NCBI GenBank assembly: GCA_964464405.1
Contig: CAYXFX010000003.1
Location: forward strand, 6,410-70,409
DNA: 64,000 nt
Source of the DNA: an uncultured Candidatus Saccharibacteria bacterium
GTDB lineage: Bacteria; Patescibacteriota; Minisyncoccia; UBA11713; 2-01-FULL-45-33
Direction of reading: 5' to 3'
The notes under the pieces were generated by a model. That model was not told the origin of the DNA, did no database searches, and saw only the letters and a list, made by a program, of their open reading frames with translations. Position 1 is the stretch's first letter, and each line of letters begins with the position of its first letter. The position numbers and the translations under genes are program-made. Positions 2,789 through 50,459 of the stretch are shown here, one piece after another.

Positions 2789-4819
2789 TTATTTTAAAAA
2801 CGGAATGAGCAAAAGCGCAACAATATTTACCACCTTTATCATCGGATTTATCGCGGGGCCAGCCGTGTCTTTGTATGGGTCACCGACTGTGTCTCCGGTT
2901 ACAGCGGCCTTGTGCGCATCCGATCCTTTCCCGCCGTAATTTCCCTCTTCAATATATTTTTTAGCGTTGTCCCACGCGGCACCTCCTGATGTCATTGAAA
3001 TTGCAAGAAAAAGCCCTGTCACTATTACTCCGACGAGTAAACCTCCTAAAGCTTTTGGCCCCAACCAAAATCCTACGATTATTGTCACCAAAATCGGTAA
3101 AATTGCCGGAATTATCATTTCTCGTAAAGCCGCTTTTGTAACAATGTCTACGGTTGCGGCATAATCCGGCTTGGCAGTGCCTTCCATTATTCCTTTTATT
3201 TCCCGAAATTGCCTGCGCACTTCTTCGACAACGCTCCCAGCGCTTTTTCCAACCGCGCGCATTGCCATTGAGGCAAAAATATACGGGAGCATTCCTCCTA
3301 AGAAAAGGCCTGTAATTACCAATGGGTCCGAAAGCTCGAAAGTAATTTCAAGCCCTTTTGAAGCAAGATCTGCTGCGTAAGCTGCAAAAAGAACCATTGC
3401 CGCAAGCCCTGCTGAAGCGATCGCGTATCCTTTCGTTACAGCTTTTGTTGTATTCCCGACAGCGTCTAAAGGGTCAGTAATATCGCGCACCTCTTTTCCT
3501 AACCCTGCCATTTCCGCAATTCCTCCAGCATTATCAGTAATAGGGCCAAACGAATCTATCGCGACAATTATCCCAGTCATAGACAGCATAGAAACTCCGG
3601 CTACTGCAATTCCGTAAAGCCCGGCAAAATTAAATGCAGTATACGCGCCGACTGAAATTAAAATTGCGGGGAGCGCCGTTGACTCAAGCGACATCGCAAG
3701 CCCCATAATAATATTTGTGCCATGCCCAGAAAGAGAACTTTTTGCGATCGATTTAACGGAACGAAATTTTTTTGAAGTGTAGTATTCAGTAATGAGCACC
3801 ATTCCTAACGTAACAGCAAGACCAATAAGAGATGCCCAGAAATAATTTATAAAATTTCCGGGGATTTTAACAACATTAAATAATCCTTGTGAAGTCGGGT
3901 TTTGAAAATTAACAACTAAATTTTTTACGGCTAAATAAAATCCTCCAGCGGATAAAATTCCCGCCGCTAACAGTCCTTTGTAAAGAGCGAGCATAATGCT
4001 CTCTGGGCCGGACACTCGTACAAAATAAAAGCCGATTATTGAAGCCCAAATGGCTACGCTTCCCAAAAGCAAGGGAAGTAAAATTGCTCCATTTGCTCCC
4101 GTAAAAATCGATGCTCCTAAAATCATTGCGGCAATTAAAGTTACTGCATAAGTTTCAAAAAGGTCGGCCGCCATACCCGCGCAATCTCCGACATTGTCTC
4201 CTACATTGTCTGCAATAACCGCCGGATTTCGAGGATCGTCTTCCGGGATTCCCGCTTCCGTTTTTCCCACAAGATCTGCGCCCACATCAGCCGCTTTCGT
4301 ATAAATTCCGCCTCCCAAGCGTGAAAACACAGATATTAATGAGCCTCCGAATCCCACCCCGACTAGCGCGAAGATATCTCCTGTCCATTTCCAAAATCCT
4401 GCAACAACCAAAAGGCCTAAACCAACAACCAAAAATCCTGTTACTGCCCCTCCTTTAAAGGCAAGTAAAAAAGCCTCTTTAAGCCCCTTCTTTGCCCCCT
4501 CCGTAACGCGTGAATTTGCCATGACTGCCGTCTGCATTCCAAGAAAGGCGGCGAGAGAAGAAGCAATGGCTCCTATGATAAAACCAATCGCGATGTTTAT
4601 GCCAAGCGACAACCAAAGTAAAATTGCGACAACAACTCCGACCAAAAAAACGGATTTAAACTGGCGTTTAATAAAAGCGCGCGAACCTTCGCGTATTGCG
4701 GAAGCGATCTCGCGCATTTTTTCATCGCCGTCGTCTGCTTTTTTGACACTGCGCCTCAAATAAAGCGCAAAAAGTATTGAAACAACTGCAGTTGTAATTG
4801 CAAAATTCTCGATAGTCAT
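2789..4819 (-). CDS. hppA: Membrane-bound H+-translocating pyrophosphatase
   Basis: 676 aa polytopic protein with [55 protein letters not shown], a diagnostic V-PPase motif. Confidence 0.9.
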
Positions 4820-4893
4820 GATTGATTAAATGGTTAAATTATTAAACGGACGAACAATTTTCAAGATAATATAAAATCTTCGTCTTGACACTA

Positions 4894-4922
4894 TTGACAA
4901 ACTAGCTAAAAAGGAGTATAAT
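4894..4922 (+). promoter_or_regulatory. Consensus sigma70-type promoter P1 (TTGACA-N17-TATAAT), extended motif TTGACAAAC..AAAAGGAGTATAAT
   Basis: Perfect -35 and -10 hexamers. The extended motif is shared with promoters at 35865-35892 (+) and 35709-35736 (-). Confidence 0.5.
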
Positions 4923-4926
4923 TAAC

Positions 4927-5095
4927 CTTAGAATAAGTAAATTATTAACTATTTCTTCTGGTAGGGCATGGGAATTCGCCGAAGTGCATTTACGTCTATT
5001 TTTAACATAAAAAGACATGGCACTCACATCCGGCGCCTCTGCCCCACCAGAAGCGATAGTTGATCGAAGTTCGACTTCGATCAAAAATAACGACT
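4927..5095 (+). ncRNA. Candidate small RNA of unknown class, driven by P1, rod-like fold
   Basis: No ORF. Long-range pairing cuucugguagggc(4958-4970)/gccccaccagaag(5042-5054) encloses internal helices (cgccg/cggcg). Ends with the 9-bp palindromic hairpin tgatcgaagttcgacttcgatca (5061-5083). Confidence 0.3.
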
Positions 5096-5112
5096 CCAAG
5101 CCACCCGTCTCC

Positions 5113-5150
5113 ACCCCTTACTAAGGGGGAAGGGGCTGGGGAAAGGGGTC
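5113..5150. repeat. GC-rich palindromic element, copy A (forms the 3' tail of the DUF559 gene)
   Basis: ccccttaCtaagggggaaggggctggggaaaggggtct; 36/37 identical to 5517-5553. Confidence 0.6.
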
Positions 5151-5435
5151 TGTAATTGATTTAATTTTTTCTAAAACACCATCAATCTTTTCAAAAACAC
5201 TTTGATTTAAAACTCGAATTGTTCTAATTCCAAGCGATTTCATAAACCTTTTTCTTTCATTGTCATACAACTTGTTTTCCAGAACTGCGTGTTGTTCACC
5301 GTCTAGTTCAACAACAAGCTTTAATTCTGGACAATAAAAATCAGCAACATATAAAATTTGTTCCGCATTGGTTAAATTGTTCCGTAAAATTCTACGTTTA
5401 TTTATCTGGGATTTTTTATTGAAAATTTTTGTCAT
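5121..5435 (-). CDS. DUF559 / Vsr-fold endonuclease-domain protein (104 aa)
   Basis: LRNNLTNAEQILYVADFYCPELKLVVELDGEQH...ERKRFMKSLGIRTIRVLNQSV matches the DUF559 signature. The C-terminal ...DPFPQPLPP is encoded by the GC-rich repeat. Confidence 0.7.
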   Translation of the reverse strand: MTKIFNKKSQINKRRILRNNLTNAEQILYVADFYCPELKLVVELDGEQHAVLENKLYDNERKRFMKSLGIRTIRVLNQSVFEKIDGVLEKIKSITDPFPQPLPP

Positions 5436-5502
5436 TAGAAATTGTTGAATGGCTACTACAAACTTTAATACCCCTAACCCAATAAAAACAGGCAGCCTGT
5501 TT

Positions 5503-6414
5503 TTATTTCCCCTTCCCCCTTAGTAAGGGGGAAGGGGCTGGGGAAAGGGGTCTCATTTTCCCATGAAACGCCTTGTGCACCTCGTGAAGTTGTTTGTCCG
5601 TAAAGTGAGTATAAATTTGGGTTGTTGAAATATTTGCATGGCCCAACATAGACTGCACGGAGCGAAGGTCGGCGCCATTTTGCAAAAGATCCGTCGCAAA
5701 AGCATGGCGCAGGACATGAGGGGTGACTTTTTTTACGATTCCCGCCTGCACAGCGTATTTTTTTATCATCCGTTGAATCGAGCGGGGAGTCATTGGGAAA
5801 AGAAGATCGTTTTCAATGTCCCCACGCTTTTCTAAATAATTATTTATCGCACTTTTGGCTCTGTCCGAAATAAACACAACGCGGATTTTCCCGCCCTTTC
5901 CGCGCACAGCAAATTCTCCGCTACGCAAGCTTACGTCGTCATTTTTTAAATTTGCAAGCTCCGAAATGCGAAGTCCGGTTGAAAAGAAGAGCTCTAAAAT
6001 TGCGCGGTCTCGAATCGATTTATTAGAGCCGCCTTCGGCGGAAGCCGAAGGAGCAGAAAGCAACCTCTCCAAATCCGCATGATCTAAAAGATCAAGATTC
6101 CTTTCTTTAAGTTTTGCAAGTTCAATTTTTTCGGCATCCAGGGATTCAATATTTTTTTTGGAAAGATATTTAAGAAACATCCTTAGTGCGATCACGTGGT
6201 AATTTTGGGTAGATTTATCTAAATTTGCGCGGTTTAAATGAAGCCTGTACTGCCTTACAAGCTCTTCCGAAATATCGGCAGGGGACTTAATTTTTGAAAA
6301 TTCCAAAAACTTCTTTAAATATCTGTCGTAATTTTCAACCGTCTTTATCGCCCGCCCTTTTTCAATTTCTAAATATTCAAGAAATTCTTTTTTAAGTGTG
6401 TCCAGATTAGCCAT
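5503..6414 (-). CDS. Tyrosine site-specific recombinase, XerC/XerD family
   Basis: C-terminal catalytic region LRHAFATDLLQNGADLRSVQSMLGHANISTTQIYTH. The last ~15 aa (RPLSPAPSPLLRGKGK) are encoded by the GC-rich palindromic element. Confidence 0.85.
   Translation of the reverse strand: MANLDTLKKEFLEYLEIEKGRAIKTVENYDRYLKKFLEFSKIKSPADISEELVRQYRLHLNRANLDKSTQNYHVIALRMFLKYLSKKNIESLDAEKIELAKLKERNLDLLDHADLERLLSAPSASAEGGSNKSIRDRAILELFFSTGLRISELANLKNDDVSLRSGEFAVRGKGGKIRVVFISDRAKSAINNYLEKRGDIENDLLFPMTPRSIQRMIKKYAVQAGIVKKVTPHVLRHAFATDLLQNGADLRSVQSMLGHANISTTQIYTHFTDKQLHEVHKAFHGKMRPLSPAPSPLLRGKGK
5509..5553. repeat. GC-rich palindromic element, copy B (ccccttccccc-ttagtaa-gggggaagggg + ctggggaaaggggtct)
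   Basis: 11 to 14-bp perfect stem; direct repeat of 5113-5150. Confidence 0.6.
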
Positions 6415-14324: not shown

Positions 14325-14675
14325 TCAAACAGTGGGCAATCCAGTTCCGCCGGCCACCTCGTGTGCTCTGCCGTGCACATAACTACTGACCACGGAAAAG
14401 GCATTGCGATATTCCGGCGACTGCCAGAGATACTCGTATGCCGCTTCAACAAAAGCTGCTTTTAGATCATTCGAAGTTACAAAAAAGACATCTGGTTTCA
14501 TGTTTGAATACCGACGTTCGCTTGAAAGTACGCTCTTCAGGATCAGCAACTTGCATTGAGCGTCGGTAGAGAAATCCTTTTGTAACCGCTTTTCGTATTC
14601 TTCTTTTTTTTTCGAAAGTTGTGCCAACAAATTTTTGTCACTTTTGTCAATAAAAATGTGCGTGTAAGATGGCAT
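14325..14675 (-). CDS. Hypothetical protein (about 116 aa from internal ATG with AGGGGGG SD), GC-rich
   Basis: The track ORF extends to 14711, but ATG at 14675 has the better RBS. The elevated GC suggests horizontal origin. Confidence 0.4.
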   Translation of the reverse strand: MPSYTHIFIDKSDKNLLAQLSKKKEEYEKRLQKDFSTDAQCKLLILKSVLSSERRYSNMKPDVFFVTSNDLKAAFVEAAYEYLWQSPEYRNAFSVVSSYVHGRAHEVAGGTGLPTV

Positions 14676-14868
14676 ACTAGCCCCCCTTCTTTTTCCATTT
14701 ACTGTCGTCAATTATGTGCCACGCCACTCCTCCTGCTTTTTGATATGTTTACCGGTCAACCCCCGTGTGAAAAAATATTATCTATGGTAACTATACATCT
14801 TTAAATTGTCTTTGTCAAATCACAGTCATTGTGTCCTTCTCCCGGGGTTTTTTTGATATAATGAACGC

Positions 14869-15852: not shown

Positions 15853-16767
15853 TTGTTTTCAAACTTTTTTACAAATCTCTCCATCCGAAACAAACTTCTT
15901 TTCGGATTTTCGATCGTTGTTTTATTTTTTCTTTTTTTTGCCGGATACTTTTTAAGGTCAGTAAATAATCTAAACAAAACCTTTGACGATCTGGAGCGTC
16001 AATATAAAATTCTTAGCGCCTTGTCGATTCTTCAACTAAGCAACAACAAATTTGCCAACAACGCCAAAGCTTATATTTTAACGAATGACAAAAAATGGGA
16101 AGATGCTTATGACGAAGCGCTGATCCAGTATGATTTGGCTTTAAATGAATTTTATGCAATTGAAACAAATGGCGAAATTCAGTCTCAAGTTAAAAGATTT
16201 GCGTTTCTTATTTCGCAACTTAAAGGCACCGAACTCTTGATTCTTTCTAAAGTCAGGAGCGGCGAGACTGAAAATGCGAAATCTCTTTTTGACTTAAATT
16301 ATGAACAACGGCAAAATGAAGCCTCGCGGCTTATTTTAGATACAGTTGAAGACAAATTTAGCGACGTTACTTCGAAATTCAATTCCGGGCATAACATTGT
16401 AAAAAAAGCGAGAAACACCCTGCTAACTTTGTTTGCGGTAGCAACGGTTGGACTGCTGCTATTATCCTTTTGGATTTCTTCATTCATTTCCGAGCCCATT
16501 AAAGAATTGGCTGAAACAATCAAAAAAATAGCAGACGGAGATTTAAAGATTCGTGCAAGAGTTTCCTCAAAAGACGAGGTAGGCATTCTTGCATCCGATC
16601 TAAACGAAATGACAAAACGCATGGAAAAATCATATCAAGATTTGGAAGAAAAAGTCCGAATTCGCACGAAAGATCTGGAAGATAAAGTAACGGAGCTTGA
16701 AAATCTAAGGGAAACAATGATAAAAACCGTAGAAACTCTGGAAAAAATAAAAGAAAAAGATCAGTGA
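15853..16767 (+). CDS. HAMP-domain signalling protein (sensor-like, no kinase domain)
   Basis: TM - periplasmic domain - TM - HAMP (PIKELAETIKKIADGDLKIRARVSSKDEVGILASDLNEMTKRME) - coiled coil. Confidence 0.6.
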   Translation: MFSNFFTNLSIRNKLLFGFSIVVLFFLFFAGYFLRSVNNLNKTFDDLERQYKILSALSILQLSNNKFANNAKAYILTNDKKWEDAYDEALIQYDLALNEFYAIETNGEIQSQVKRFAFLISQLKGTELLILSKVRSGETENAKSLFDLNYEQRQNEASRLILDTVEDKFSDVTSKFNSGHNIVKKARNTLLTLFAVATVGLLLLSFWISSFISEPIKELAETIKKIADGDLKIRARVSSKDEVGILASDLNEMTKRMEKSYQDLEEKVRIRTKDLEDKVTELENLRETMIKTVETLEKIKEKDQ

Positions 16768-16787
16768 TCGAAGTTCGACTTCAATCA
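16765..16787. terminator. Palindromic hairpin tgatcgaagttcgacttcaatca between convergent genes (repeat-family member)
   Basis: Near-identical to 5061-5083; lies between the HAMP gene stop and the M23 peptidase stop. Confidence 0.4.
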
Positions 16788-34751: not shown

Positions 34752-35525
34752 ATGTTTGACGAACTTAAAAAAATTGGATTATCAGAAAACGAGGCGCGTG
34801 TTTATTGCGCACTTCTTGAGTTAGGATCAGCAACTGCGCAAGAAGTTGCGAAAAAAGCCGATGTTAAACGCGCTACGACTTATGTTCAATTGGATTCTCT
34901 TATGAAAATAGGCTTGGTAACATCTTTTGAAAAAACCCCCGAAAGAAAAAATGGAGCAGGTAAGACATACTTCCGCGCGGAAGATCCATCATATTTAGAA
35001 AAAATTGTCGAGCGCGAAAAGAAAACAGCAGAAGACCGCGAAAAGGTTTTGAGAGAAATACTTCCGGCGCTAGAAAAAGTGTTTTTATCTTCTGGCGAGC
35101 GCCCTCGCGTAAGATTTTTTGAAGGAGTGGAAGGCCTCCGCACAATGCAGGATGAGTTTTTGAAGTCAAAATCGAAAGAAGCAGTTGGCTTTTCTTCGGC
35201 TGATGACATTTTAAGAATTTTTCCTTCGCATCCTTCCGAATATTCTCCGAGGCGGGTAAAAAGCAGGATACATTCTAAAGTGATCTATACAAGCTCTAAA
35301 GGAAAAATTCTTAAAGAAGTAGACCAAGAAATGATGCGCGAGGCTCGTTTCGTGCCGGAAGCTAAATTTCCTTTTACATGCGATGTTGTCATTTATGATA
35401 ATAAAGTCGCAATTTCTGCTTTAAGTAAAAAACCAATGGGCGTAATAGTTGAAAGTGAAGAAATAACTGAATCATTCCGTTCAATGTTTGCGCTTGCTTG
35501 GGAAGCTGCTGAAAAATATCAATAA
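34752..35525 (+). CDS. TrmB-family HTH transcriptional regulator
   Basis: MFDELKKIGLSENEARVYCALLELGSATAQEVAKKADVKRATTYVQLDSLMKIGLV wHTH plus a TrmB C-terminal domain. Confidence 0.65.
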   Translation: MFDELKKIGLSENEARVYCALLELGSATAQEVAKKADVKRATTYVQLDSLMKIGLVTSFEKTPERKNGAGKTYFRAEDPSYLEKIVEREKKTAEDREKVLREILPALEKVFLSSGERPRVRFFEGVEGLRTMQDEFLKSKSKEAVGFSSADDILRIFPSHPSEYSPRRVKSRIHSKVIYTSSKGKILKEVDQEMMREARFVPEAKFPFTCDVVIYDNKVAISALSKKPMGVIVESEEITESFRSMFALAWEAAEKYQ

Positions 35526-35526
35526 A

Positions 35527-35703
35527 AAAGCCGGGGGCGTTCGACGGCCCCCGTAAGGAGAAAAAAATAAAAATTTTTTTCTTTCTTTTTTTATTTTTTC
35601 ACATTAATTCCCGCCATAATATGGCGGAAAAAAACACATCAACCTCCCAGGTTTAGAACAACATCCGACCACCTCCTTTCTGATAATCCGCACCTCATAT
35701 CCC
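35527..35703 (-). ncRNA. Candidate small RNA (about 175 nt) with its own consensus promoter and an intrinsic terminator
   Basis: Promoter P3 on the minus strand (tgtcaa 35731-35736 / attata 35709-35714 in plus coordinates). Internal hairpin ccgccauauuauggcgg. Terminator cgggggccgucgaacgcccccg followed by UUUUUU (35553-35525). No ORF. Confidence 0.35.
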
Positions 35704-35864
35704 ATCTAATTATACTCCTTTTATATGTTTTGTCAAATTATTTGGGCAGAATTGAATTACATGCTTAATTACGAACTGCCGCGCTTCAACAACATTTCAT
35801 AAAGAAAAAAACGGCTTAAAATAAAGCGCTTTTGTGAACTTTTACACAAAAGAGCCATAAACGC

Positions 35865-35892
35865 TTGACAAACTTCTACAAAGGAGTATAAT
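35865..35892 (+). promoter_or_regulatory. Consensus promoter P2 (TTGACAAAC..AAAGGAGTATAAT), divergent from P3
   Basis: TTGACA-N16-TATAAT with the same extended motif as P1 and P3. Confidence 0.5.
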
Positions 35893-35903
35893 GCTATTTA
35901 GTT

Positions 35904-36590
35904 AAGTTGAAATAACGACTTAACCGAAAGGGGTGGTATGGAATATGGGCAAAAACTAAAATAATAGCCCGAACCACAACCACTTCAAGGTTTCGCCCTT
36001 TAGGCGGACAAGTTTGATAAAAAAGTCATGGGTGGTTCCTCTCATCCCGCCGAAAGGCAGGCAAGCTAGAGAGGAGACTAGGGGATAATGTGACCCCTCG
36101 CCTCCTCTTTAAAGAGGAACAAGATATGCGAGATATTCTCGCAGCGCTCAAGGGCGCTAGGTTAATCGCTAAAACCTACGCCGCGGAGCAAAGGATAGCC
36201 CACTATCTTTTGCCGAACGGTCAGGTTGCGGAGGTTACCCGGCGGGTTAGGCCCAAAGAGCGCAAAAATATCCTGGTAGCCCGTCCCAGGTTGCGCTAAA
36301 TAGCGCGTAAAAATGAAGGCTTGCGGGTTTGTGTGTTCCTGCATAGGTGAGCCAGAAATCATCTAAAAATTAGAACACTCCTCGGGGCGGCGGTTAGCCC
36401 TGATAGGAAGTCAACGCACTTCCGACTTCCATCAAAATTCATTTTAATGCTAAAAATTAAAACGGATTTTAATGGGAGTAGGTGAGCCTGAGTGCTTTGC
36501 ACAAGCGGAAGCTAAGAGTTGTCTGCAAGGTGATTAACTCCGGGCTTACGTAATCGTCCACCCACCGCTCTCTTAGCCCTTTTCAAAATA
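35904..36590 (+). ncRNA. GC-rich, densely structured non-coding region; candidate stable RNA(s), possibly including RNase P RNA (P4-like strands AGCCCG at 36283-36288 and ACUCCGGGCUUA at 36540-36551)
   Basis: GC content far above flanks. Chain of hairpins including a GAAA tetraloop (gccGAAAggc). 3' motif aACUCCGGGCUUA resembles the RNase P CR-V ACAGAANCCGGCUUA; AUAGGUGAGCCAGAAAUC resembles AUAGGGCAGG..GCCAGGUAAC. rnpA is 2 kb away. ORFs in the track here look spurious. Confidence 0.3.
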
Positions 36591-36611: not shown

Positions 36612-36848
36612 ATGTTAAATCAGAAGCTTAGTTTGGTGTTGGCAGGTTTGTTGTCAATTTGGTTTCTTTGTTTGGGGCTTGCGATCCTCACCCGCCAGCA
36701 CAGTTGGTTTCTTCGTTTTTCTCGCCGCCAGGCAGCCAGACCATTTCGCTGGATCTGGCGCCACTGGCATACGCAGATTACCTGGGCGCTCATCGGTGCA
36801 GGCGTCCTCCTCTATTATCTCGTTTCCACCAACCGCATTGCTCCTTGA
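36612..36848 (+). CDS. Small two-TM membrane protein (78 aa) with strong SD (AAGGAGG) and a downstream terminator; GC-rich
   Basis: AAGGAGG 7 nt upstream of ATG; hydrophobic-RW rich-hydrophobic architecture; intrinsic terminator at 36950-36983. Confidence 0.35.
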   Translation: MLNQKLSLVLAGLLSIWFLCLGLAILTRQHSWFLRFSRRQAARPFRWIWRHWHTQITWALIGAGVLLYYLVSTNRIAP

Positions 36849-39213: not shown

Positions 39214-40575
39214 ATGATGATTAATGACGAATTGTGGAAAAAGGCGTTGGGAGGAATAGAAACTGAAATTTCAAGAGCTAATTTTTTAACTTGGTTTAAA
39301 AACACGCACATAATAGAACACTCTGAAAACACAATTACGATTGGGGTTCCATCAAATTTTGTTAAAGAGTGGTTGGAAAATAAATACCATAAATACATTT
39401 TGAAATCCTTAAGAAATATCTCTCCTGATATTAGAGTTATAAATTATACTATTGCTTCAGAAAACTTAAAAATTGATCAAAAATTAAAAATTCAGAAAGA
39501 ATCACCTCCTCCACCAGAAGAACAGCTCGAATTTAAAGATTTCAATCTCGACCCAAACACCAACCTAAATCCCAGATATACATTAGAAACATTCATTGTG
39601 GGCCCTTTTAATGAGCTTGCCTACGCAGCGGCGCTCGAAGTAATAAAAAACCTCGGCAAGGCCCTAAATCCTTTATTTATTTACGGAGGAGTTGGGTTGG
39701 GAAAAACCCATTTACTTCAAGCAATAGGAAACACTATTCATATAAAAGACCCTAGAAAGCGCGTTTACTACATTACATCTGAAAAATTCAGTAACGAAAT
39801 TGTATCATCAATTCAAAACCACAATATTCACAACTTTAAAGAAAAATACCGTGATTATGACTTACTAATTATTGATGATGTACAGTTTTTCGGTGGAAAG
39901 GTTAAAACTCAAGAAGAGTTTTTTTACACATTTAACACTTTGTACGAATCTGGGAAACAAGTCGTATTTTCTTCCGATAGGCCGCCGAAATCAATTCCTG
40001 ACATAGAAGAGCGGTTGCGCTCACGTCTGGAAGCAGGAGCTTATATTGATATTTCAGAACCAGAATACGAAACAAGACTTGCGATATTAAAATCAAAAAC
40101 ACTCGAAAAAAAACTTGATATTTCCGAAAAGGTGTTAGAAGTAATAGCTTCTGTTGTCCAAAAAAATATCAGGGAGTTGGAAGGTGCTTTAAATACCATA
40201 CACATGCAGTCCGTTTATCATAATAGGATTCTTACTCCTGATGAAGCAAAGGTAATACTAAGTAAAAATACACGCCCAAAAATAAATATAACACCTGCAC
40301 AAATTATTAAAAATGTCGCTGAATTTTATGATATTCCGGAACGCATGATGTTCGAGCGAACACGCAAAACCGAAATCGTAAAACCGCGACAAATAGCTAT
40401 GTTTTTAATTAGAGAAGATCTTGGCGGCTCATATCCTTTTATTGGACAAAAGTTTAATGGAATGGACCATACAACAGCAATCCATGCTTATGAAAAAATA
40501 ATTAATGATTTAAAAAAGAATTCAACACTTGAGGAAGAGTTGAGGAGTATTAGGGAAAAATATCAGGTTAAATAA
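39214..40575 (+). CDS. dnaA: Chromosomal replication initiator DnaA
   Basis: AAA+ Walker A GGVGLGKTHLLQAIGN; C-terminal DNA-binding domain (RQIAMFLIREDLGGSYPFIGQKFNGMDHTTAIHAYEKI). Confidence 0.95.
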   Translation: MMINDELWKKALGGIETEISRANFLTWFKNTHIIEHSENTITIGVPSNFVKEWLENKYHKYILKSLRNISPDIRVINYTIASENLKIDQKLKIQKESPPPPEEQLEFKDFNLDPNTNLNPRYTLETFIVGPFNELAYAAALEVIKNLGKALNPLFIYGGVGLGKTHLLQAIGNTIHIKDPRKRVYYITSEKFSNEIVSSIQNHNIHNFKEKYRDYDLLIIDDVQFFGGKVKTQEEFFYTFNTLYESGKQVVFSSDRPPKSIPDIEERLRSRLEAGAYIDISEPEYETRLAILKSKTLEKKLDISEKVLEVIASVVQKNIRELEGALNTIHMQSVYHNRILTPDEAKVILSKNTRPKINITPAQIIKNVAEFYDIPERMMFERTRKTEIVKPRQIAMFLIREDLGGSYPFIGQKFNGMDHTTAIHAYEKIINDLKKNSTLEEELRSIREKYQVK

Positions 40576-40719
40576 TTATCCACTGTATAATCACAATATA
40601 ATAAATAAAAGATATTAAAATTTTCATTTAAAAATAAATAAAAATTTTAATATCCACATATTAACAAAATTAGTAATAATAATTTTTTATTCAAATATAA
40701 ATTAAATTAATAAACAAAA
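40576..40719. other. Candidate oriC: very AT-rich dnaA-dnaN spacer with DnaA boxes
   Basis: TTATCCACT at 40577-40585 and ATATCCACA at 40652-40660 (consensus TTATCCACA); DUE-like A/T tracts. Confidence 0.45.
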
Positions 40720-41820
40720 ATGAAAATTATTTGTGCCAATCAAAATATTAAAGAAATTCTTTCCATTGCAGAAAGAAATGTTTCAAAAAATCAAACTCTT
40801 CCTATTTTAAATTCTGTTTTTCTTAATGCCGAAGATGGAAAATTACAAGTAAGAGCGACAAATTTAGAAACCGCAATTGAAGCGAATGTTTTCTGTACTG
40901 TAAAAGAAAAAGGATCTTTAGTAATTCCAGCAAAGATTTTATATACTTATCTATCAAATATTAACGATGAACAAATTACACTGCAAAGCCAAAAAAGTAA
41001 TTTATTCATAAAAACAAATAATTCTGAAACAGTAATTAGGGGGATGTCTGTAGATGAATTTCCATTATTTCCGAAAATTGATGTGATAAACTCTTTTTCG
41101 ATGCCATGCGATCTTTTAAAAGAATCATTATCACAAGTTGTAAGTGCGTCTAGCCAATCAGAAATTAAACCAGAACTTGCTAGTGTTTTGTTTAAAATTT
41201 TTAAAAATTCAGTTAAATTTGCAGCAACCGATTCTTTTAGGTTGGCTGAAAAAACTATAGTTTCTAAGACAATCAACTCCGATAAACAATATAATTTTTT
41301 AGTACCACAAAAATCTGTACATGAAATTTTGAGGATTTTAGTTAATAATGAAATTATAAATGTTGGTTTTGGTAAAAATCAAATGATACTTGAAACCAAA
41401 CAACTAAAATTTATTTCACGTCTTACAGACGGCGTATTTCCGGACTATGAACAAATTATTCCTAAAACTTTCAAAACAGACGTTTTAATTACCCATAATT
41501 CAATTTTAAAAAATTTAAAAATAGCTAGTATTTTCGTCGGCAAATTAAACGAAATTAATCTAAATTTTGAGCCACATAAAAAATTAGTTTTAATTTCCGC
41601 ATCACATCCGGAAGCGGGCGAACATTCTTCCGAAGTCAGTGCGAATATTGAAGGAGAAGAAGTAAATATAAAATTTAATTATAAATATTTACTAGACGGT
41701 ATTTCACAGATAAACAGCGAGTATATTTCTTTTAATTTAAACGGCAGCGATTCCCCTCTTTTAATAAAAGGAAAAGGAGACTCATCTTTTATTTATTTAG
41801 CGATGCCGATGAGAGTTTAA
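40720..41820 (+). CDS. dnaN: DNA polymerase III beta sliding clamp
   Basis: 366 aa, three-domain clamp architecture; follows dnaA. Confidence 0.9.
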   Translation: MKIICANQNIKEILSIAERNVSKNQTLPILNSVFLNAEDGKLQVRATNLETAIEANVFCTVKEKGSLVIPAKILYTYLSNINDEQITLQSQKSNLFIKTNNSETVIRGMSVDEFPLFPKIDVINSFSMPCDLLKESLSQVVSASSQSEIKPELASVLFKIFKNSVKFAATDSFRLAEKTIVSKTINSDKQYNFLVPQKSVHEILRILVNNEIINVGFGKNQMILETKQLKFISRLTDGVFPDYEQIIPKTFKTDVLITHNSILKNLKIASIFVGKLNEINLNFEPHKKLVLISASHPEAGEHSSEVSANIEGEEVNIKFNYKYLLDGISQINSEYISFNLNGSDSPLLIKGKGDSSFIYLAMPMRV

Positions 41821-44312
41821 TTAGTAATATTTAAATTAATTTTTGTTTCCGTTTTATTTTCAGCTTCGTCATATATTTTAATTTTTATTTCAGCACTACT
41901 GGTATTAATAAAATCTAAATTTAATCTATACTGAAAAGGATTTGAAGTAACAGATCCTAAAAATTTTTCATTAACAAAAAAATCAATTTGTTTTATATTA
42001 TAAGAACTTTCTATTATGGGCTCGATGATTATATCATCCTTTTTACTGTAAGATGTTTTTTCTGGTAAAATTTTAATTTCTGTTTTAGAAAAAAAAGAAT
42101 TATAAATAGTGTCGTCGTATGAGTTTGGAATAGAATTTACGTTTTGGTCTATGTATCCACGCGAATATGCCCATTCTCTTACAGAATGCTCCCAGTTTTT
42201 AAATTGTGAGTCAGATGAAGGATTAAACGGAGGTTCACCTAAAGGATCATCTTTTTTTAACCAGTAAAGAATCGTATGTATGGCTGCAATAACACGCTCT
42301 TCTTTAAAATTTTGCGGAGTGTCTTCGCGCGCTAATTTTCCTGAATTTTTGTTTATAATATAAGAAATTCCACCTCTCCATTCTCCTTTAAGAACAGGTT
42401 TGTTGGCCGGAAAGTTATCCGGCGTAATAAAGTCTTCAGACGGTGTTTTTGTTAAAGCAAATTCCATTAACTCGTGCCACATCGGAGCAACAATAAATCC
42501 TGCGACCCTTTTTTCCATCGGGGTGTTGTCGTTATTTCCAGACCAAGCCCCGATTGCTATATTGGGCGTATATCCAATAACCCACGCGTCTCTATAATTA
42601 TTGGTGGTTCCTGTTTTTGCCGCAACTTTTTTACCTGAGAAAACAAGAGCTTCTCCAAATGAAGGTCCGCGAGCGTTATTGTCCGATAATATATCGCTAA
42701 TTGTGCGCGCAGTGTTTTTATCAACGACTTCAGATGATTTTGTTTCAGAAGTAAATAAAAGTTTTCCCGAAGAATCTTTAATTTCTAAAATATCCCTACT
42801 CGGGTTTTTTATTCCTTCGTTTGCAAAAACACCATACGCTGAAGTTAGTTCAAGAAGCGACACTTCTCCTCCTCCAAGCACTAAAGTAAGGCCATATCGA
42901 TCAGGTTCGTTAAGAGAGGTTATGCCGAAATCACGGGCTGTTCTTAAAGAATCATCCAACCCTGTTAAATAAAGAAGTTTAACAGAGGGAACGTTAAGTG
43001 ATTGCGCTAGGGCCTCTCTTAGTGAAACGGGGCCTCTAAATTTTTCATCATAATTTTGCGGGTGGTAGCATTTGTCAGGATCAAATCCGGCAGGAGCGTT
43101 TCCATTAGGCATGCACGATGGATTAAATTCAGTAAATAAATCAAAAAGAACAGTTTCGGGAGTATACCCTTTTTTAAGTGCGGTTGCGTATACAAACGGC
43201 TTAAAAGAAGAACCGGGCTGCCGCTTCGCTGTTGTGATGTTAAAATTCCCGTCTCTTTTTTGGTCAAAATAATCACGCGATCCGACCATGGCCAAAATAT
43301 CTCCGGTTTTTGGATCTGTTATCACAATTCCAGCATTTTTTGCATTGAAATTTTTTTCATTATTATCTCCGTATTTTTTTATAACTTCTTCTGATTTTTG
43401 TTGTAGATCGACGTCGAGCGTTGTTATAACATTAAGCCCACTTCTGGCGATCAAGTCTTCTCCATATTGGCTGTTTAATTTATCTAAAACCTCCATAACA
43501 AAATGAGGGGCAATGATTCCCTGCCTTTTTTGCGGCAAAAAGGAAACTTTTTCTTTTTTTGATTCCTCATATTCTTTTTCCGACAAAAAACCAAGGTCCA
43601 TCATTCTTTTTAAAGTAAATTCGGCTCGTTTATCGAGAGAGTCTTTATGTTTTCCGTACGGAGAATAGAAACTCGGCGCCTTAGGAAGAGACGCAAGATA
43701 TGCCGATTCTGGAATATTAAGTTCATTTGCGTGTTTTCCAAAAAAAGTAATGGCGGCCGATTCTACTCCATAAGCATTTTGTCCGTAAGGGATTTGGTTT
43801 AAATAGAGATCTAATATTTTATCTTTTGAGTATTTTTGTTCAATTTTGATTGTTAAAATTACTTCTTTGATTTTACGTTTGATTGTTTTTTCCGGCCCTA
43901 AAAGTGTGTTTTTTACAAGCTGTTGCGTAATAGTGGAGCCGCCCTGCTCTAAATTTATTTTTATAATATTTATCAAAAGCGACCGAAGAATTGAAAGCGG
44001 ACGAATTCCGTAGTGTTGATAAAAAGTGTCGTCTTCTAAAGCAATTGTTGCGTTTTTAATAGACCTAGGAATTTGATCAAATGTTATAACCGTCCTTTTT
44101 TCTTCTCCATGGACGTCATATAAAACAATTTTTCCGGTTCGATCGTAAATTTTTGTTGATTCGGCTCTTTTTATTTCATTCGCGTTTGCAATGTCTGGAA
44201 TTTTAGTAAAATAAACCGCAAGTACCAAAAAAACCATGCTTAAAACGGCGAGTGCCAAGATAGATAAAAAAAATTTCCAAATTATTTTTTTTCTTTTAAG
44301 CATTTTCTTCAC
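41817..44312 (-). CDS. Class A penicillin-binding protein (PBP1A-type transglycosylase/transpeptidase) with a C-terminal extension
   Basis: GT51 motifs EDDTFYQHYGI, GGSTITQQLVKN; transpeptidase SxxK (GSSFKPF), SxN, KTG (KTGTT). Confidence 0.85.
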   Translation of the reverse strand: MKKMLKRKKIIWKFFLSILALAVLSMVFLVLAVYFTKIPDIANANEIKRAESTKIYDRTGKIVLYDVHGEEKRTVITFDQIPRSIKNATIALEDDTFYQHYGIRPLSILRSLLINIIKINLEQGGSTITQQLVKNTLLGPEKTIKRKIKEVILTIKIEQKYSKDKILDLYLNQIPYGQNAYGVESAAITFFGKHANELNIPESAYLASLPKAPSFYSPYGKHKDSLDKRAEFTLKRMMDLGFLSEKEYEESKKEKVSFLPQKRQGIIAPHFVMEVLDKLNSQYGEDLIARSGLNVITTLDVDLQQKSEEVIKKYGDNNEKNFNAKNAGIVITDPKTGDILAMVGSRDYFDQKRDGNFNITTAKRQPGSSFKPFVYATALKKGYTPETVLFDLFTEFNPSCMPNGNAPAGFDPDKCYHPQNYDEKFRGPVSLREALAQSLNVPSVKLLYLTGLDDSLRTARDFGITSLNEPDRYGLTLVLGGGEVSLLELTSAYGVFANEGIKNPSRDILEIKDSSGKLLFTSETKSSEVVDKNTARTISDILSDNNARGPSFGEALVFSGKKVAAKTGTTNNYRDAWVIGYTPNIAIGAWSGNNDNTPMEKRVAGFIVAPMWHELMEFALTKTPSEDFITPDNFPANKPVLKGEWRGGISYIINKNSGKLAREDTPQNFKEERVIAAIHTILYWLKKDDPLGEPPFNPSSDSQFKNWEHSVREWAYSRGYIDQNVNSIPNSYDDTIYNSFFSKTEIKILPEKTSYSKKDDIIIEPIIESSYNIKQIDFFVNEKFLGSVTSNPFQYRLNLDFINTSSAEIKIKIYDEAENKTETKINLNITN

Positions 44313-48556: not shown

Positions 48557-48610
48557 TTGACATCTGTTGACATTATAATAATAATTTGATATAATTCAGA
48601 AAAATAATTC

Positions 48611-48770
48611 TGAAGAGTAGCCTCTAGGCGATAATCCCGGATACCGGGATAGCTGGTTTTATCTTAGCCTCGGATAGCTTGGTTTTCCCGCTTGCGGGAA
48701 GCTACTCGGCTAATCCTCGGAGAAAATCTAAGCTCTATCTACCCATGGAAGAGCAATCGCCTGGAGACTA
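48611..48770. other. Structured element closed by an 18-bp long-range stem (gagtagcctctaggcgat / atcgcctggagactactc), between pilB and ruvB; candidate ncRNA or cis-regulatory RNA
   Basis: Inverted repeats 48611-48628 and 48753-48770 enclose about 125 nt with GC hairpins (cccggataccggg, tcccgcttgcggga). GC-rich relative to flanks; no ORF. Confidence 0.3.
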
Positions 48771-48785
48771 CTCGGCAGAAAACAA

Positions 48786-50459
48786 CTAAACCGAAACGAC
48801 TCTATTTAATTCTTCAAAGGACGTAATTCCGCCCAAAACTTTTAATATTCCGTCTTGATATAAAGTTAACATCTGCTGCATGCGCGCCATTTCGTTAATA
48901 TCAGCTTCGGCTGGGTTTTTAAGAATTAGGCGTTCAACTTTATCGTCGATTAAAAAGAGTTCAAAAATTCCAATTCTTCCTTTAAATCCCGTGAAATTAC
49001 ACGCCTCGCATTCTCCACTACTCCATAACTTAAATTTTTTTGTGACGATGTTTTTTTTAAATTTTTCGGGAATATTTTTTAGTATTTTTTCTATCTGCTC
49101 GCGCTCTTTTTCATCCGGCTCGTATTCTTTTTTACAATTTTTACAAAGTCTTCTGACTAGTCTTTGCGCAATTACAGAATTAATGGCCGGAGCGATAATG
49201 TTTGTTTTTACTCCCAAGTCAATTAATCTTGGAATGGTTCCGGCGGCGTTGTTGGTGTGCAGAGTTGAGAATACAAGGTGTCCGGTGAGTGCTGCGTGCA
49301 TTGCTGTTTCAGCGGTTTCAAGGTCTCTTATCTCGCCTACTAAAATTATGTCTGGATCTTGGCGTAAAATTGATTTTAAGCCGTTAGAAAAATCATATGT
49401 TTTAGATTGGTCTACTTGTGTCTGAGTTACATAAGGAAGGTGATATTCAATCGGGTCTTCGATTGTTACTACCTTTACTTCAACGGACGCAACTTTTTTT
49501 AAAAAAGCATAAAGAGTCGTTGTTTTTCCGGATCCTGTAGGGCCAGTTGTTAAAATCATTCCGTTGGGCCGCGAAAGCTCCTTTTCGATTGTTTCTTTTA
49601 ATTCGTGATGAATGCCTAAATTTTCAAATGTTATTGCGATTGTTTTTGGGAGCAGAATTCTTGTCACTACGGATTCTCCGTAGGGGCCAGGGAGAATCGA
49701 GGTTCTTACTTCTATATCTTCCGTGTTAATTCTTATTGTAAATCTTCCGTCCTGGGGGCGGTCATGAACATTTAATTTGACTTCGGAGACAAGTTTTATG
49801 CGCGAAAGAATCAGTAAAAAAAGCTCTTTTGAAATATCCGATATTTCCTGCAGAACTCCGTCAATTCTGAACCTTATTTTTGCGCCGTCTTCTACGGGTT
49901 CCAAATGTATATCCGAAGCTTCTGCTTCGAGTGCGCCAGCCAAAAGTAATTCCAAAGATTCAGATGCCTTCCTCGATACTTTATCTTGAGATAAAGCTCG
50001 CATCTCTTCTTTAAAAGCTTTTAATGATTTTATTTTTTGCCCGAATGTTTCGATTTTGGATTGATTGATGTTTACAAGTCCAGATTTAATTTCTTCAAAG
50101 CGCGGTATTTCTTTGTATTTTATAAAAGCGCGTTCAATACTGGTTGGAGAAACAAGAAAAAGCTGGATTTCGTAATTTTTCCTTTTAAGATTATCTAAAA
50201 TTTCAGAAACTTCAGGTCTGTCCGGGTTTGTAACTGCGATTTGTAATTTTTTACCAACACTTTGTATCACTGCCAAAGATGCAGATTTAGCTTCTTGCTC
50301 CGGAATTATTTTTAGGGAGTCAATGTCAATGGTCATTAAAGAAAGGTCTAAATATTGAAGGCCGTGCTTTTGGGCCAACGTCTGCGCAAGCTCTTCTTCT
50401 TCTTTTTTTCTTAAGAAGTCAATTGTGCTTCGGGTTTTACTGTTCTCCCCTTGTTTCAT
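48786..50459 (-). CDS. GspE/PilB-family type II/IV secretion / type IV pilus assembly ATPase
   Basis: Walker A GPTGSGKTTTLYA, VTIEDPIEY, Asp/His boxes, C-terminal Zn tetracysteine (CKNC...CEAC). Confidence 0.85.
   Translation of the reverse strand: MKQGENSKTRSTIDFLRKKEEEELAQTLAQKHGLQYLDLSLMTIDIDSLKIIPEQEAKSASLAVIQSVGKKLQIAVTNPDRPEVSEILDNLKRKNYEIQLFLVSPTSIERAFIKYKEIPRFEEIKSGLVNINQSKIETFGQKIKSLKAFKEEMRALSQDKVSRKASESLELLLAGALEAEASDIHLEPVEDGAKIRFRIDGVLQEISDISKELFLLILSRIKLVSEVKLNVHDRPQDGRFTIRINTEDIEVRTSILPGPYGESVVTRILLPKTIAITFENLGIHHELKETIEKELSRPNGMILTTGPTGSGKTTTLYAFLKKVASVEVKVVTIEDPIEYHLPYVTQTQVDQSKTYDFSNGLKSILRQDPDIILVGEIRDLETAETAMHAALTGHLVFSTLHTNNAAGTIPRLIDLGVKTNIIAPAINSVIAQRLVRRLCKNCKKEYEPDEKEREQIEKILKNIPEKFKKNIVTKKFKLWSSGECEACNFTGFKGRIGIFELFLIDDKVERLILKNPAEADINEMARMQQMLTLYQDGILKVLGGITSFEELNRVVSV

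Follow-up and report, generated by a model that had tools for sequence, protein, structure and literature searches.

What do three near-identical promoters with perfect hexamers transcribe when none of them stands in front of an evident protein gene? The question is raised by a stretch of 64,000 nucleotides of contig CAYXFX010000003.1 (the window, meaning the whole stretch), which is ordinary chromosomal DNA of a Parcubacteria bacterium of the candidate phyla radiation (CPR). An exact protein look-up matched it to a metagenome-assembled genome of Candidatus Giovannonibacteria (GCA_016176325.1, contig JACOXL010000004.1). Three sites in it, P1, P2 and P3, had been described in a first-pass annotation as a promoter class dedicated to stable RNAs. 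The answer that we regard as probable is a different one: P1, P2 and P3 are housekeeping (sigma-70/SigA-type) promoters of maximal strength, each transcribing a separate, abundant and lineage-specific non-coding RNA (ncRNA) of Candidatus Giovannonibacteria and related Parcubacteria. The genomes of CPR bacteria are tiny, the organisms have so far been beyond genetics, and their regulatory and structural RNAs are almost uncharted. The promoters are ordinary, and the interest of the locus lies in what appear to be three or four new CPR RNA families, chiefly an RNA with a very strong Shine-Dalgarno (SD) sequence and a mini open reading frame (ORF), and a structured RNA linked to a gene for a TrmB-like protein.

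P1 occupies positions 4894-4922 of the plus strand (TTGACAAACTAGCTAAAAAGGAGTATAAT), with its -35 hexamer TTGACA at 4894-4899, a 17-nt spacer and its -10 hexamer TATAAT at 4917-4922; an AAAGGAG block at 4910-4916 lies directly against the -10, and an extra TTGACA is found at 4885-4890, 5' of the -35. P2 lies on the plus strand at 35865-35892 (TTGACAAACTTCTACAAAGGAGTATAAT; -35 at 35865-35870, 16-nt spacer, -10 at 35887-35892) and P3 on the minus strand at 35709-35736 (TTGACAAAACATATAAAAGGAGTATAAT; -35 at 35736-35731, 16-nt spacer, -10 at 35714-35709). The sequence bears out what had been said of the sites themselves: each matches the two hexamers at 12 of 12 positions with spacers of 17, 16 and 16 nt, P2 and P3 point away from each other, their -35 hexamers being 128 bp apart, and an exact 13-mer, AAAGGAGTATAAT, is common to all three. 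Three exact copies of this 13-mer are present in the window against 0.007 expected from base composition, and perfect TTGACA-N15-19-TATAAT sites number four against 0.04 expected. Only five sites in the 64-kb window differ from the consensus at no more than one position with a spacer of 16-18 nt, namely P1, P2, P3, a perfect site at 48567 (plus strand) and a TATAGT site at 14818 (minus strand), and all four perfect promoters point into ORF-free structured sequence. The possibility that P1, P2 and P3 duplicate a mobile or repeated element, or arose by chance in AT-rich DNA and have no function, is given almost no credence here. P1 does lie at a rearranged junction, where the neighbour of the gene hppA is NusA in one set of relatives and xerC in another, but the identity of the three sites stops at the promoter, beyond which the downstream sequences are mutually unrelated; the chance expectation is the 0.007 copies just given; and each site has its own orthologues with a conserved downstream RNA, which effectively refutes the idea.

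The hexamers and the 16-18-nt spacing of P1, P2 and P3 are those of sigma-70-type promoters, and the sites are canonical promoters of this known kind with a non-TGn extension. In consensus sigma-70/SigA extended -10 promoters, the extension is TGn in Escherichia coli and the -16 element TRTG in Bacillus subtilis. P1, P2 and P3 resemble these promoters in their perfect hexamers, 16-17-nt spacer and conserved bases against the -10, and differ from them in that GGAG (or GWG) abuts TATAAT where TGn plus one base would be expected. No TG one base 5' of TATAAT was found at P1-P3, which read GGAG-TATAAT there instead; TGn is present at some promoters of the P3-type RNA in relatives, besides their tRNA promoters. 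The discriminators of the window (TAACCT, GCTATT and TAGATG) are not GC-rich. The promoters of relatives add a G-rich discriminator (TATAAT-GGGGG), and G-rich discriminators stabilise open complexes in other bacteria. Promoters of rRNA and tRNA genes under stringent or growth-rate control also have near-consensus hexamers and serve highly expressed RNA genes. The present sites share the near-consensus hexamers with them but have no rRNA or tRNA gene downstream in the window and no GC-rich discriminator, and the tRNA genes of relatives use other promoters.

The sequences that the three promoters face are structured, as had been claimed, with folds beating dinucleotide shuffles at z = -6.6 for the P1 RNA, z = -8.7 for the P2 region and z = -2.35 for the P3 RNA. 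The further claim that none of the promoters precedes an ORF was upheld in part. The mechanical ORFs of the three regions are unconserved in relatives (a 70-aa ORF antisense to the P1 RNA, a 69-aa ORF at 36090-36299 and a 33-aa ORF in the P3 region), and by tblastn no ORF of these regions was found to be kept as protein in relatives, though the nucleotide sequences are kept. The claim needs qualifying in two respects: the P3 RNA holds an SD-AUG mini-ORF of three codons at 35664-35653, and a real 78-aa gene stands 720 nt 3' of P2 with no terminator between. In orthologues (their loci are labelled by L numbers throughout), the conserved RNA sequence starts right after the promoter. Since the promoters recur at orthologous positions ahead of conserved, covarying, non-protein sequence, the sites behave as real ncRNA promoters. 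The P2 transcript (RNA-A) and the P1 RNA have compensatory pairs and no conserved ORF, the general criterion for structured ncRNA.

The pair formed by P2 and P3 is anchored in synteny by a gene for a TrmB-family helix-turn-helix protein (34752-35525, plus strand; Pfam PF01978), and 80 loci were fetched from 396 TrmB homologues. A plus-strand consensus promoter was found 300-500 bp past the TrmB stop in nearly all 80, the orthologous P2-type promoters reading TTGACAAAT...TAATAGGAGTATAAT and variants, and a divergent minus-strand consensus promoter was also found in most. The conserved 5' core of RNA-A, recognised by nhmmer, alignments and two covariance models (R1 and R2), spans 35900-36120 on the plus strand and is about 170-230 nt long across homologues. 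It begins with the H0 hairpin (35900-35924) directly after the start, with 4-8 bp across homologues, followed by the helix H2 (35930-35937 with 35979-35986; 7-8 bp across homologues), which closes the long irregular hairpin H3 (35939-35977). The loop of H3 contains AAUAAU (35960-35965), and in homologues it is 16 nt long and likewise contains AAUAAU. Two single-stranded elements follow, AAGUUUGAUA at 36010-36019 and the invariant CAUGGGUGG at 36027-36035 (ACAUGGGU(A/G)G, within single-stranded ACAUGGGURG), and then the P4 hairpins (36037-36120), in which a purine-rich strand of the GGGAGACC type is paired into one or two hairpins. The helices were defined by hand and tested through covariance-model alignment, raw MAFFT with RNAalifold having given a partial structure only. 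An outer helix H1, pairing AAGUUUGAUA with the 5' region, was left out of the model, as no register fits all sequences.

Model R1, built on the 5' domain, found 13 distinct loci. In this domain, 83.5% of the cells are paired, compared with 67% after shuffling and 23-46% with slid partners; both sides have changed in 18 of the 23 pairs, and none of 500 shuffles reached any of the observed measures. The P4 helix also covaries. The second model, R2, describes a shorter form of about 170-200 nt, located exactly at the promoter in L149, L150, L153 and L155. Short forms are directly followed by another consensus promoter, and the core is therefore a unit by itself. A group of RNAs in L154, L159, L160, L164, L165, L175, L187 and L203 ("Cluster 2") shares the position and the motifs GGUAUCG and UAGAUAAU; R2 misses them, and they are not counted as members here. 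A reading of RNA-A as RNase P RNA, prompted by AAAGUCC-like insertions in L141 and L143, was rejected, there being no Rfam signal.

Beyond the core, the P2 transcript has a strongly folded and lineage-variable 3' extension of about 470 nt (36121-36590, plus strand), which includes, at about 36418-36478, a CCAUCAAA...UUUGAUGGG hairpin module common to L127, L146, L140 and L143. After it comes orf78, the membrane-protein gene of 78 aa mentioned above (36612-36848), which is real, with a strong SD and a homologue in L155. As neither an internal sigma-70-like promoter nor a terminator was found between P2 and orf78, the P2 region might be taken for a structured 5' leader of about 710 nt that controls orf78 in cis in the manner of a riboswitch or attenuator. 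The relatives speak against such a leader, which we consider improbable: 170-330 nt after the core, another consensus promoter stands in L133, L149, L150, L153, L155 and L130; the core is followed by a tRNA gene in L132, L127 and L140 and by kilobases of ORF-poor sequence in some relatives; and the orf78 homologue of L155 lies 1.3 kb off, beyond the second promoter. With such varied downstream contexts, the RNA-A core is conserved whatever follows it.

Some features of these downstream contexts are recorded separately. The same-strand tRNA genes after RNA-A (Pro, Tyr and Tyr) lie in L132 (3372-3879, minus strand), L127 (5180-6115) and L140 (5078-6654) and have no good promoter of their own; where a tRNA follows, the 3' end of RNA-A may be set by RNase P cleavage, and rnpA is present in the window. 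The further promoter after the short RNA-A (TTGACAGAT...GG(T)G(G/A)TATAAT) was located at L133 5548, L162 1366 and L149 1793 (plus strand); it precedes a long hairpin leader (GGTTGAAAT...), followed in L149 by an SD and AUG, and this could be a cis-regulatory leader. The ORF-poor stretches extend 2-3.7 kb past the TrmB homologue (L140 4780-8497, L143 2496-5630, and L155, L159 and L165), and since Rfam recognises only tRNAs in them, they are apparently islands of several unannotated RNA modules.

The P1 RNA is predicted to span about 160 nt (4930-5090, plus strand), with its 5' end placed 7-8 nt past the -10. It contains an imperfect, rod-like hairpin of about 110 nt (4955-5053), in which two motifs are invariant, GAAGUGCAU at 4981-4989 and CAUGGCACUCACAU at 5016-5029 (CAU(A/G)GCACUCACA), and it ends in a terminator-like hairpin with a UUCG loop (5061-5084) that is not followed by a U tract. 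Homologues were found near xerC in L329, L330, L332 and L333, with nhmmer E values of 1e-8 to 2e-4 from a single-sequence query and of 1e-24 to 1e-34 with a family profile that was built from those same sequences. Their promoters read TTGACAAGT...AAAAGGAGTATAAT in L332 and L333 and carry a TATACT -10 in L329 and L330. RNAalifold of four sequences gave 27 pairs, of which 7 are compensatory with both sides changed. The P1 RNA is absent beside hppA in L205-L208, and no exact match to it was found in viral contigs. In L331, a P1-type promoter at the equivalent position drives a 65-aa ORF instead.

In the window, the P1 RNA is flanked by hppA (2789-4819, minus strand) on one side and by a DUF559 gene and an xerC-like recombinase gene (5121-6414, minus strand) on the other, beyond which lie rpsO, an NYN-domain gene and pnp; the xerC-like recombinase near P1 is a conserved housekeeping gene. 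The gene order around hppA varies among close relatives (2789-6414 of the window compared with L205-L208 and L329-L333), being either NusA-hppA or hppA beside xerC-DUF559, and the P1 locus is therefore at a rearrangement junction. The DUF559 copies shift position, and adjoin pnp in L331 and L332. All the P1-family homologues are divergent from a tRNA gene, and in L329, L332 and L333 the two transcription units are arranged back to back with overlapping -35 elements; in the window, both the P1-type RNA and RNA-A have lost their tRNA neighbours. A second copy of the UUCG-loop hairpin (GATCGAAG-TTCG-ACTTCGATC) lies between convergent genes at 16765-16787, also without a U tract, and the hairpin may be a lineage-specific terminator or RNA-stabilising element.

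The P3 transcript, RNA-C, is predicted to be about 177 nt long (35525-35702, minus strand), ending against the stop of the TrmB-like gene (35525). Near its 5' end it carries a perfect SD of 9-10 nt (AAAGGAGGUG, 35679-35670), followed by a mini-ORF encoding MLF (AUG at 35664-35662, stop at 35655-35653). After a U-rich stretch comes a small covarying hairpin (CCGCCAUAUUAUGGCGG, on the same strand), which is CCGCC...GGCGG in the window and GGGC...GCCC in relatives, and the RNA closes with a strong intrinsic terminator (35553-35532 and a U run) adjoining the TrmB stop codon. A minus-strand consensus promoter was found 130-370 nt past the TrmB-like stop in about 35 distinct related loci. In RNA-C loci, 24-70 nt separate the -10 from the perfect SD AAGGAGGUG(A), which is followed after 5-9 nt by a start codon, AUG or GUG, in about 20 distinct loci. 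The mini-ORF has 3-5 codons in 17 of these approximately 20 loci, and its peptide varies (MLF, MVW, MGW, MLW, MRGV, MRGA, MFTG and others). The length is thus kept and the peptide is not, which argues for selection on ribosome loading and rapid termination rather than on a product.

How might such an RNA work? A strong 5'-proximal SD with no normal gene after it is a feature of elements of the STAB-SD type, and RNA-C shares it. Ribosomes bound to a strong SD near the 5' end of Bacillus transcripts block RNase J1 and make the RNA more stable (PMC5737220, PMC3997798); the STAB-SD of cryIIIA is such a 5' stabiliser (PMC4113751), and hbs mRNA is likewise ribosome-protected. Like these, RNA-C has a very strong SD near the 5' end from which no normal protein is made; unlike them, its SD leads into an ORF of 3-5 codons with a conserved start codon, and the body that would be protected is non-coding. 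By analogy, the super-SD and mini-ORF of RNA-C may load a ribosome or 30S subunit, and the loaded ribosome or subunit would protect the RNA from 5' exonuclease. Alternatively, RNA-C could titrate 30S subunits. Minigenes, such as bar of phage lambda and the E-peptide encoded in 23S rRNA, are defined by toxicity or resistance effects. RNA-C shares with them the arrangement of an SD, an AUG, 2-5 codons and a stop, and differs in that it is a chromosomal gene, conserved, driven from a consensus promoter and closed by a terminator of its own. RNA-C could be a translated regulatory mini-gene, in which translation governs termination and hence antisense read-through into the TrmB-like gene, or which makes a functional tri- or tetrapeptide. 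The conservation of SD, spacing, start codon and very short ORF length would fit, as would the position of RNA-C, which is convergent with and abuts the TrmB-like gene at every locus. Such a role is doubtful nonetheless, given that the peptide is unconserved (from MLF and MVW to MRGV, MFTG and others), that the terminator lies 100-250 nt from the mini-ORF across variable sequence, and that no consistent alternative antiterminator pairing was seen.

Is the extended motif reserved for RNA genes, as the first-pass annotation proposed? The same motif was found ahead of protein genes in CPR, Firmicutes and phage contigs, and the dedicated class cannot be upheld as it was put. An exact-pattern scan of genomes gave at least 240 matches, mostly in Clostridia or phage contigs and unrelated to the window beyond the promoter; the matches listed give no basis for claiming enrichment over chance among real promoters. 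Among the matches listed, 65 of the 111 evaluable ones in other genomes have, no more than 250 nt past the motif, an SD with an ORF of 60 aa or longer, and in 8 of the 111 AAAGGAG itself is used as the ribosome-binding site. The extended pattern (27-29 nt) is frequent in phage contigs. CPR protein genes behind the motif include a MraZ-like gene, a 91-aa ORF of Giovannonibacteria and a 283-aa gene in L072 whose match to Band_7/SPFH is weak (E = 4e-4) and falls short of the Pfam cut-off. That the motif stands upstream of many ordinary protein genes, which had been named as grounds for giving up the class, comes close to being borne out: it holds across other genomes and does not hold within the window or its close relatives. 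Nor are known stable RNAs its carriers. No known stable RNA lies downstream of any of the sites, and the tRNA promoters of relatives differ, reading TTGTCA-N17/18-TGCTA(T/A)AAT with 1-4 hexamer mismatches and/or a TGn -10, and not AAAGGAG.

A dedicated class or regulon, in which a specific factor (a sigma variant, the TrmB-like protein or another) reads AAAGGAG and TTGACAA and co-regulates ncRNA genes, is unlikely in our judgement, although several observations favour it. The exact block is common to three unrelated RNA families in this genome; it recurs at orthologous promoters of all three in several species, which retain (A/T)AGGAGTATAAT; and the tRNA promoters of the same relatives are unlike it (TGCTAWAAT). 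In addition, conserved TGTCA/TGACA motifs and palindromes flank the P2-type -35, and a TrmB-like regulator adjoins. In the region between P3 and P2 (35737-35864), the window carries an inverted repeat, CTTTTGTG-N8-CACAAAAG, at 35830-35853; L127, L134, L140, L150, L155, L159 and L165 carry instead TGTCA 9-10 nt 5' of the -35 (TTGTCAA-N6-TTGACAA), repeated TGACA/TGTCA and AAATAAGGCTAAA. These motifs are possible operators; one candidate to bind them is the neighbouring TrmB-like protein, which may act on the divergent P2/P3 pair. On the other side stand the SD-ORF genes that follow the same 27-29-nt pattern in CPR, Firmicutes and phage contigs, the 65-aa ORF behind the same promoter type at the P1-equivalent site of L331, the distant orthologues of RNA-A and RNA-C, which carry GTGTATAAT, TGCTATAAT or AATATAAT in place of the block, and the fourth ncRNA promoter of the window, which is without it. 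In our reading, the link of the motif with RNA genes reflects expression level and not a separate recognition system. TTGACAA, an A-rich spacer and GGAG against TATAAT would represent the optimal promoter context of this lineage, selected for high output, and the extra bases are probably not a recognition code for a special class of RNA genes.

Several points weigh against the reading of P1, P2 and P3 as housekeeping promoters of abundant ncRNAs. The start sites, 3' ends and abundance of the RNAs are all inferred, and protection of RNA-C from RNase J is an analogy from Bacillus. The P1 family consists of only four distinct sequences. Insertions leave the RNA-A of the window at no better than E = 0.14 with model R1, and its placement rests on an nhmmer E value of 2e-27 (with the window as one of the seven profile sequences), on synteny and on shared motifs. 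With no terminator before orf78, the P2 transcript could be a long leader in this genome. Finally, AAAGGAG is kept in three unrelated RNA families and several species, for which selection for strength gives no obvious cause, so that a specific factor is possible.

To which family, then, do the RNAs belong? The universal stable RNAs named in the first-pass annotation (RNase P RNA, SRP RNA, 6S RNA, tmRNA and rRNA) were not borne out by covariance scans: the RNAs are in no Rfam 15 family. With Rfam 15, among whose families RF00010, RF00011, RF00169, RF01854, RF00013 and RF00023 were tested, nothing in the entire window reached the gathering threshold, and a search of the three regions relaxed to E ≤ 10 gave no credible match either. 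ARAGORN detected neither tRNAs nor tmRNA anywhere in the window, and Rfam at the gathering threshold found only tRNAs in 28 related loci. As rnpA is present in the gene set of the window, the RNase P RNA must be encoded outside it. The models for OLE, ROOL, GOLLD, HEARO and raiA matched neither the window region nor any of 20 related loci, and literature searches on CPR ncRNAs or promoters found no description of these RNAs.

Resemblances to known RNAs are nevertheless instructive. OLE, ROOL, GOLLD and raiA are large or ornate bacterial ncRNAs of unexplained function (PMC12286853, PMC10861870). RNA-A resembles them in being long (up to about 700 nt here), structured, covarying, free-standing, unexplained and sometimes beside a tRNA; it differs in having no Rfam match at E ≤ 10, a core of about 170-230 nt and an occurrence in Parcubacteria, always adjoining a TrmB-like gene. 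The P1 RNA recalls 4.5S/SRP RNA and 6S RNA in its rod shape, invariant internal-loop sequences and strong promoter, but it is without an Rfam match at E ≤ 10 and lacks both a GNRA apical loop and a large central bubble. Parcubacteria have been reported to be without ffh and ffs (PMC4508563), so a substitute role for RNA-A or the P1 RNA is conceivable. Taken together, the data permit the tentative proposal, for which the chances are well below even, that Giovannonibacteria and related Parcubacteria hold at least three, probably at least four, undescribed and very highly expressed ncRNA families forming a CPR-specific core RNA set, recognisable by a shared promoter signature that can be mined. 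This set would comprise a large structured RNA by the TrmB-like gene, a super-SD and mini-ORF RNA engaging ribosomes without making protein, and a rod-like RNA whose gene is paired with that of a tRNA; some members may replace missing universal ribonucleoproteins (e.g., SRP RNA) or tune a small ribosome pool. RNA-C would stand out in such a set by what appears from its sequence to be an unusual, conserved ribosome-loading 5' end.

Rfam and ARAGORN are thus silent on a 64-kb window whose four perfect promoters each lead into a predicted transcript that is structured and ORF-free. No fewer than three of the four predicted transcripts are conserved across genomes, and two of those have compensatory base-pair changes. 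The first-pass idea of mining the motif genome-wide for ncRNA genes is sustained in modified form. AAAGGAG alone is no marker of RNA genes; however, every perfect promoter in the window faces ORF-free structured RNA, and promoter mining therefore finds RNA genes here. Perfect consensus promoters facing ORF-free sequence offer a cheap and testable route to ncRNA genes of the CPR, and the RNAs so found are candidate families for curation in the manner of Rfam, for structural studies and for checks against metatranscriptomes.

The fourth perfect promoter, TTGACA-N17-TATAAT at 48567-48595 on the plus strand, is without AAAGGAG, was missing from the earlier list and is divergent from ruvB. It faces a predicted RNA at 48602-48785 (within 48567-48795) of about 185 nt, which is ORF-free, multi-branched and closed by a 17-bp stem, has a fold z of -6.5 and carries CUACUCGGC twice. 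No Rfam match was found for this RNA, which is convergent with a gene for a PilB-like ATPase. Of the near-perfect promoters in the window, only the TTGACA...TATAGT one at 14818-14790 (minus strand) serves a protein gene; a leader of about 115 nt separates it from an ORF of 116 aa (14674-14818 region) with no Pfam match.

As for the wider neighbourhood, P2 and P3 lie between the TrmB-family gene and the 78-aa membrane-protein gene and near jag, yidC, rnpA and dnaA, that is, in the replication-origin region. The G+C fraction falls to 0.28 at 40001-42000, which covers the dnaA-dnaN intergenic region and dnaN beside rnpA, yidC and jag, and is consistent with a replication origin. In distant relatives (L172, L177, L180, L182, L192, L197 and L198), a consensus promoter, TTGACAAAATAAATAAAGTAGAATATAAT, was found upstream of the TrmB homologue, where it drives another conserved RNA, beginning AUGAAACAGUGGCAGAAC.

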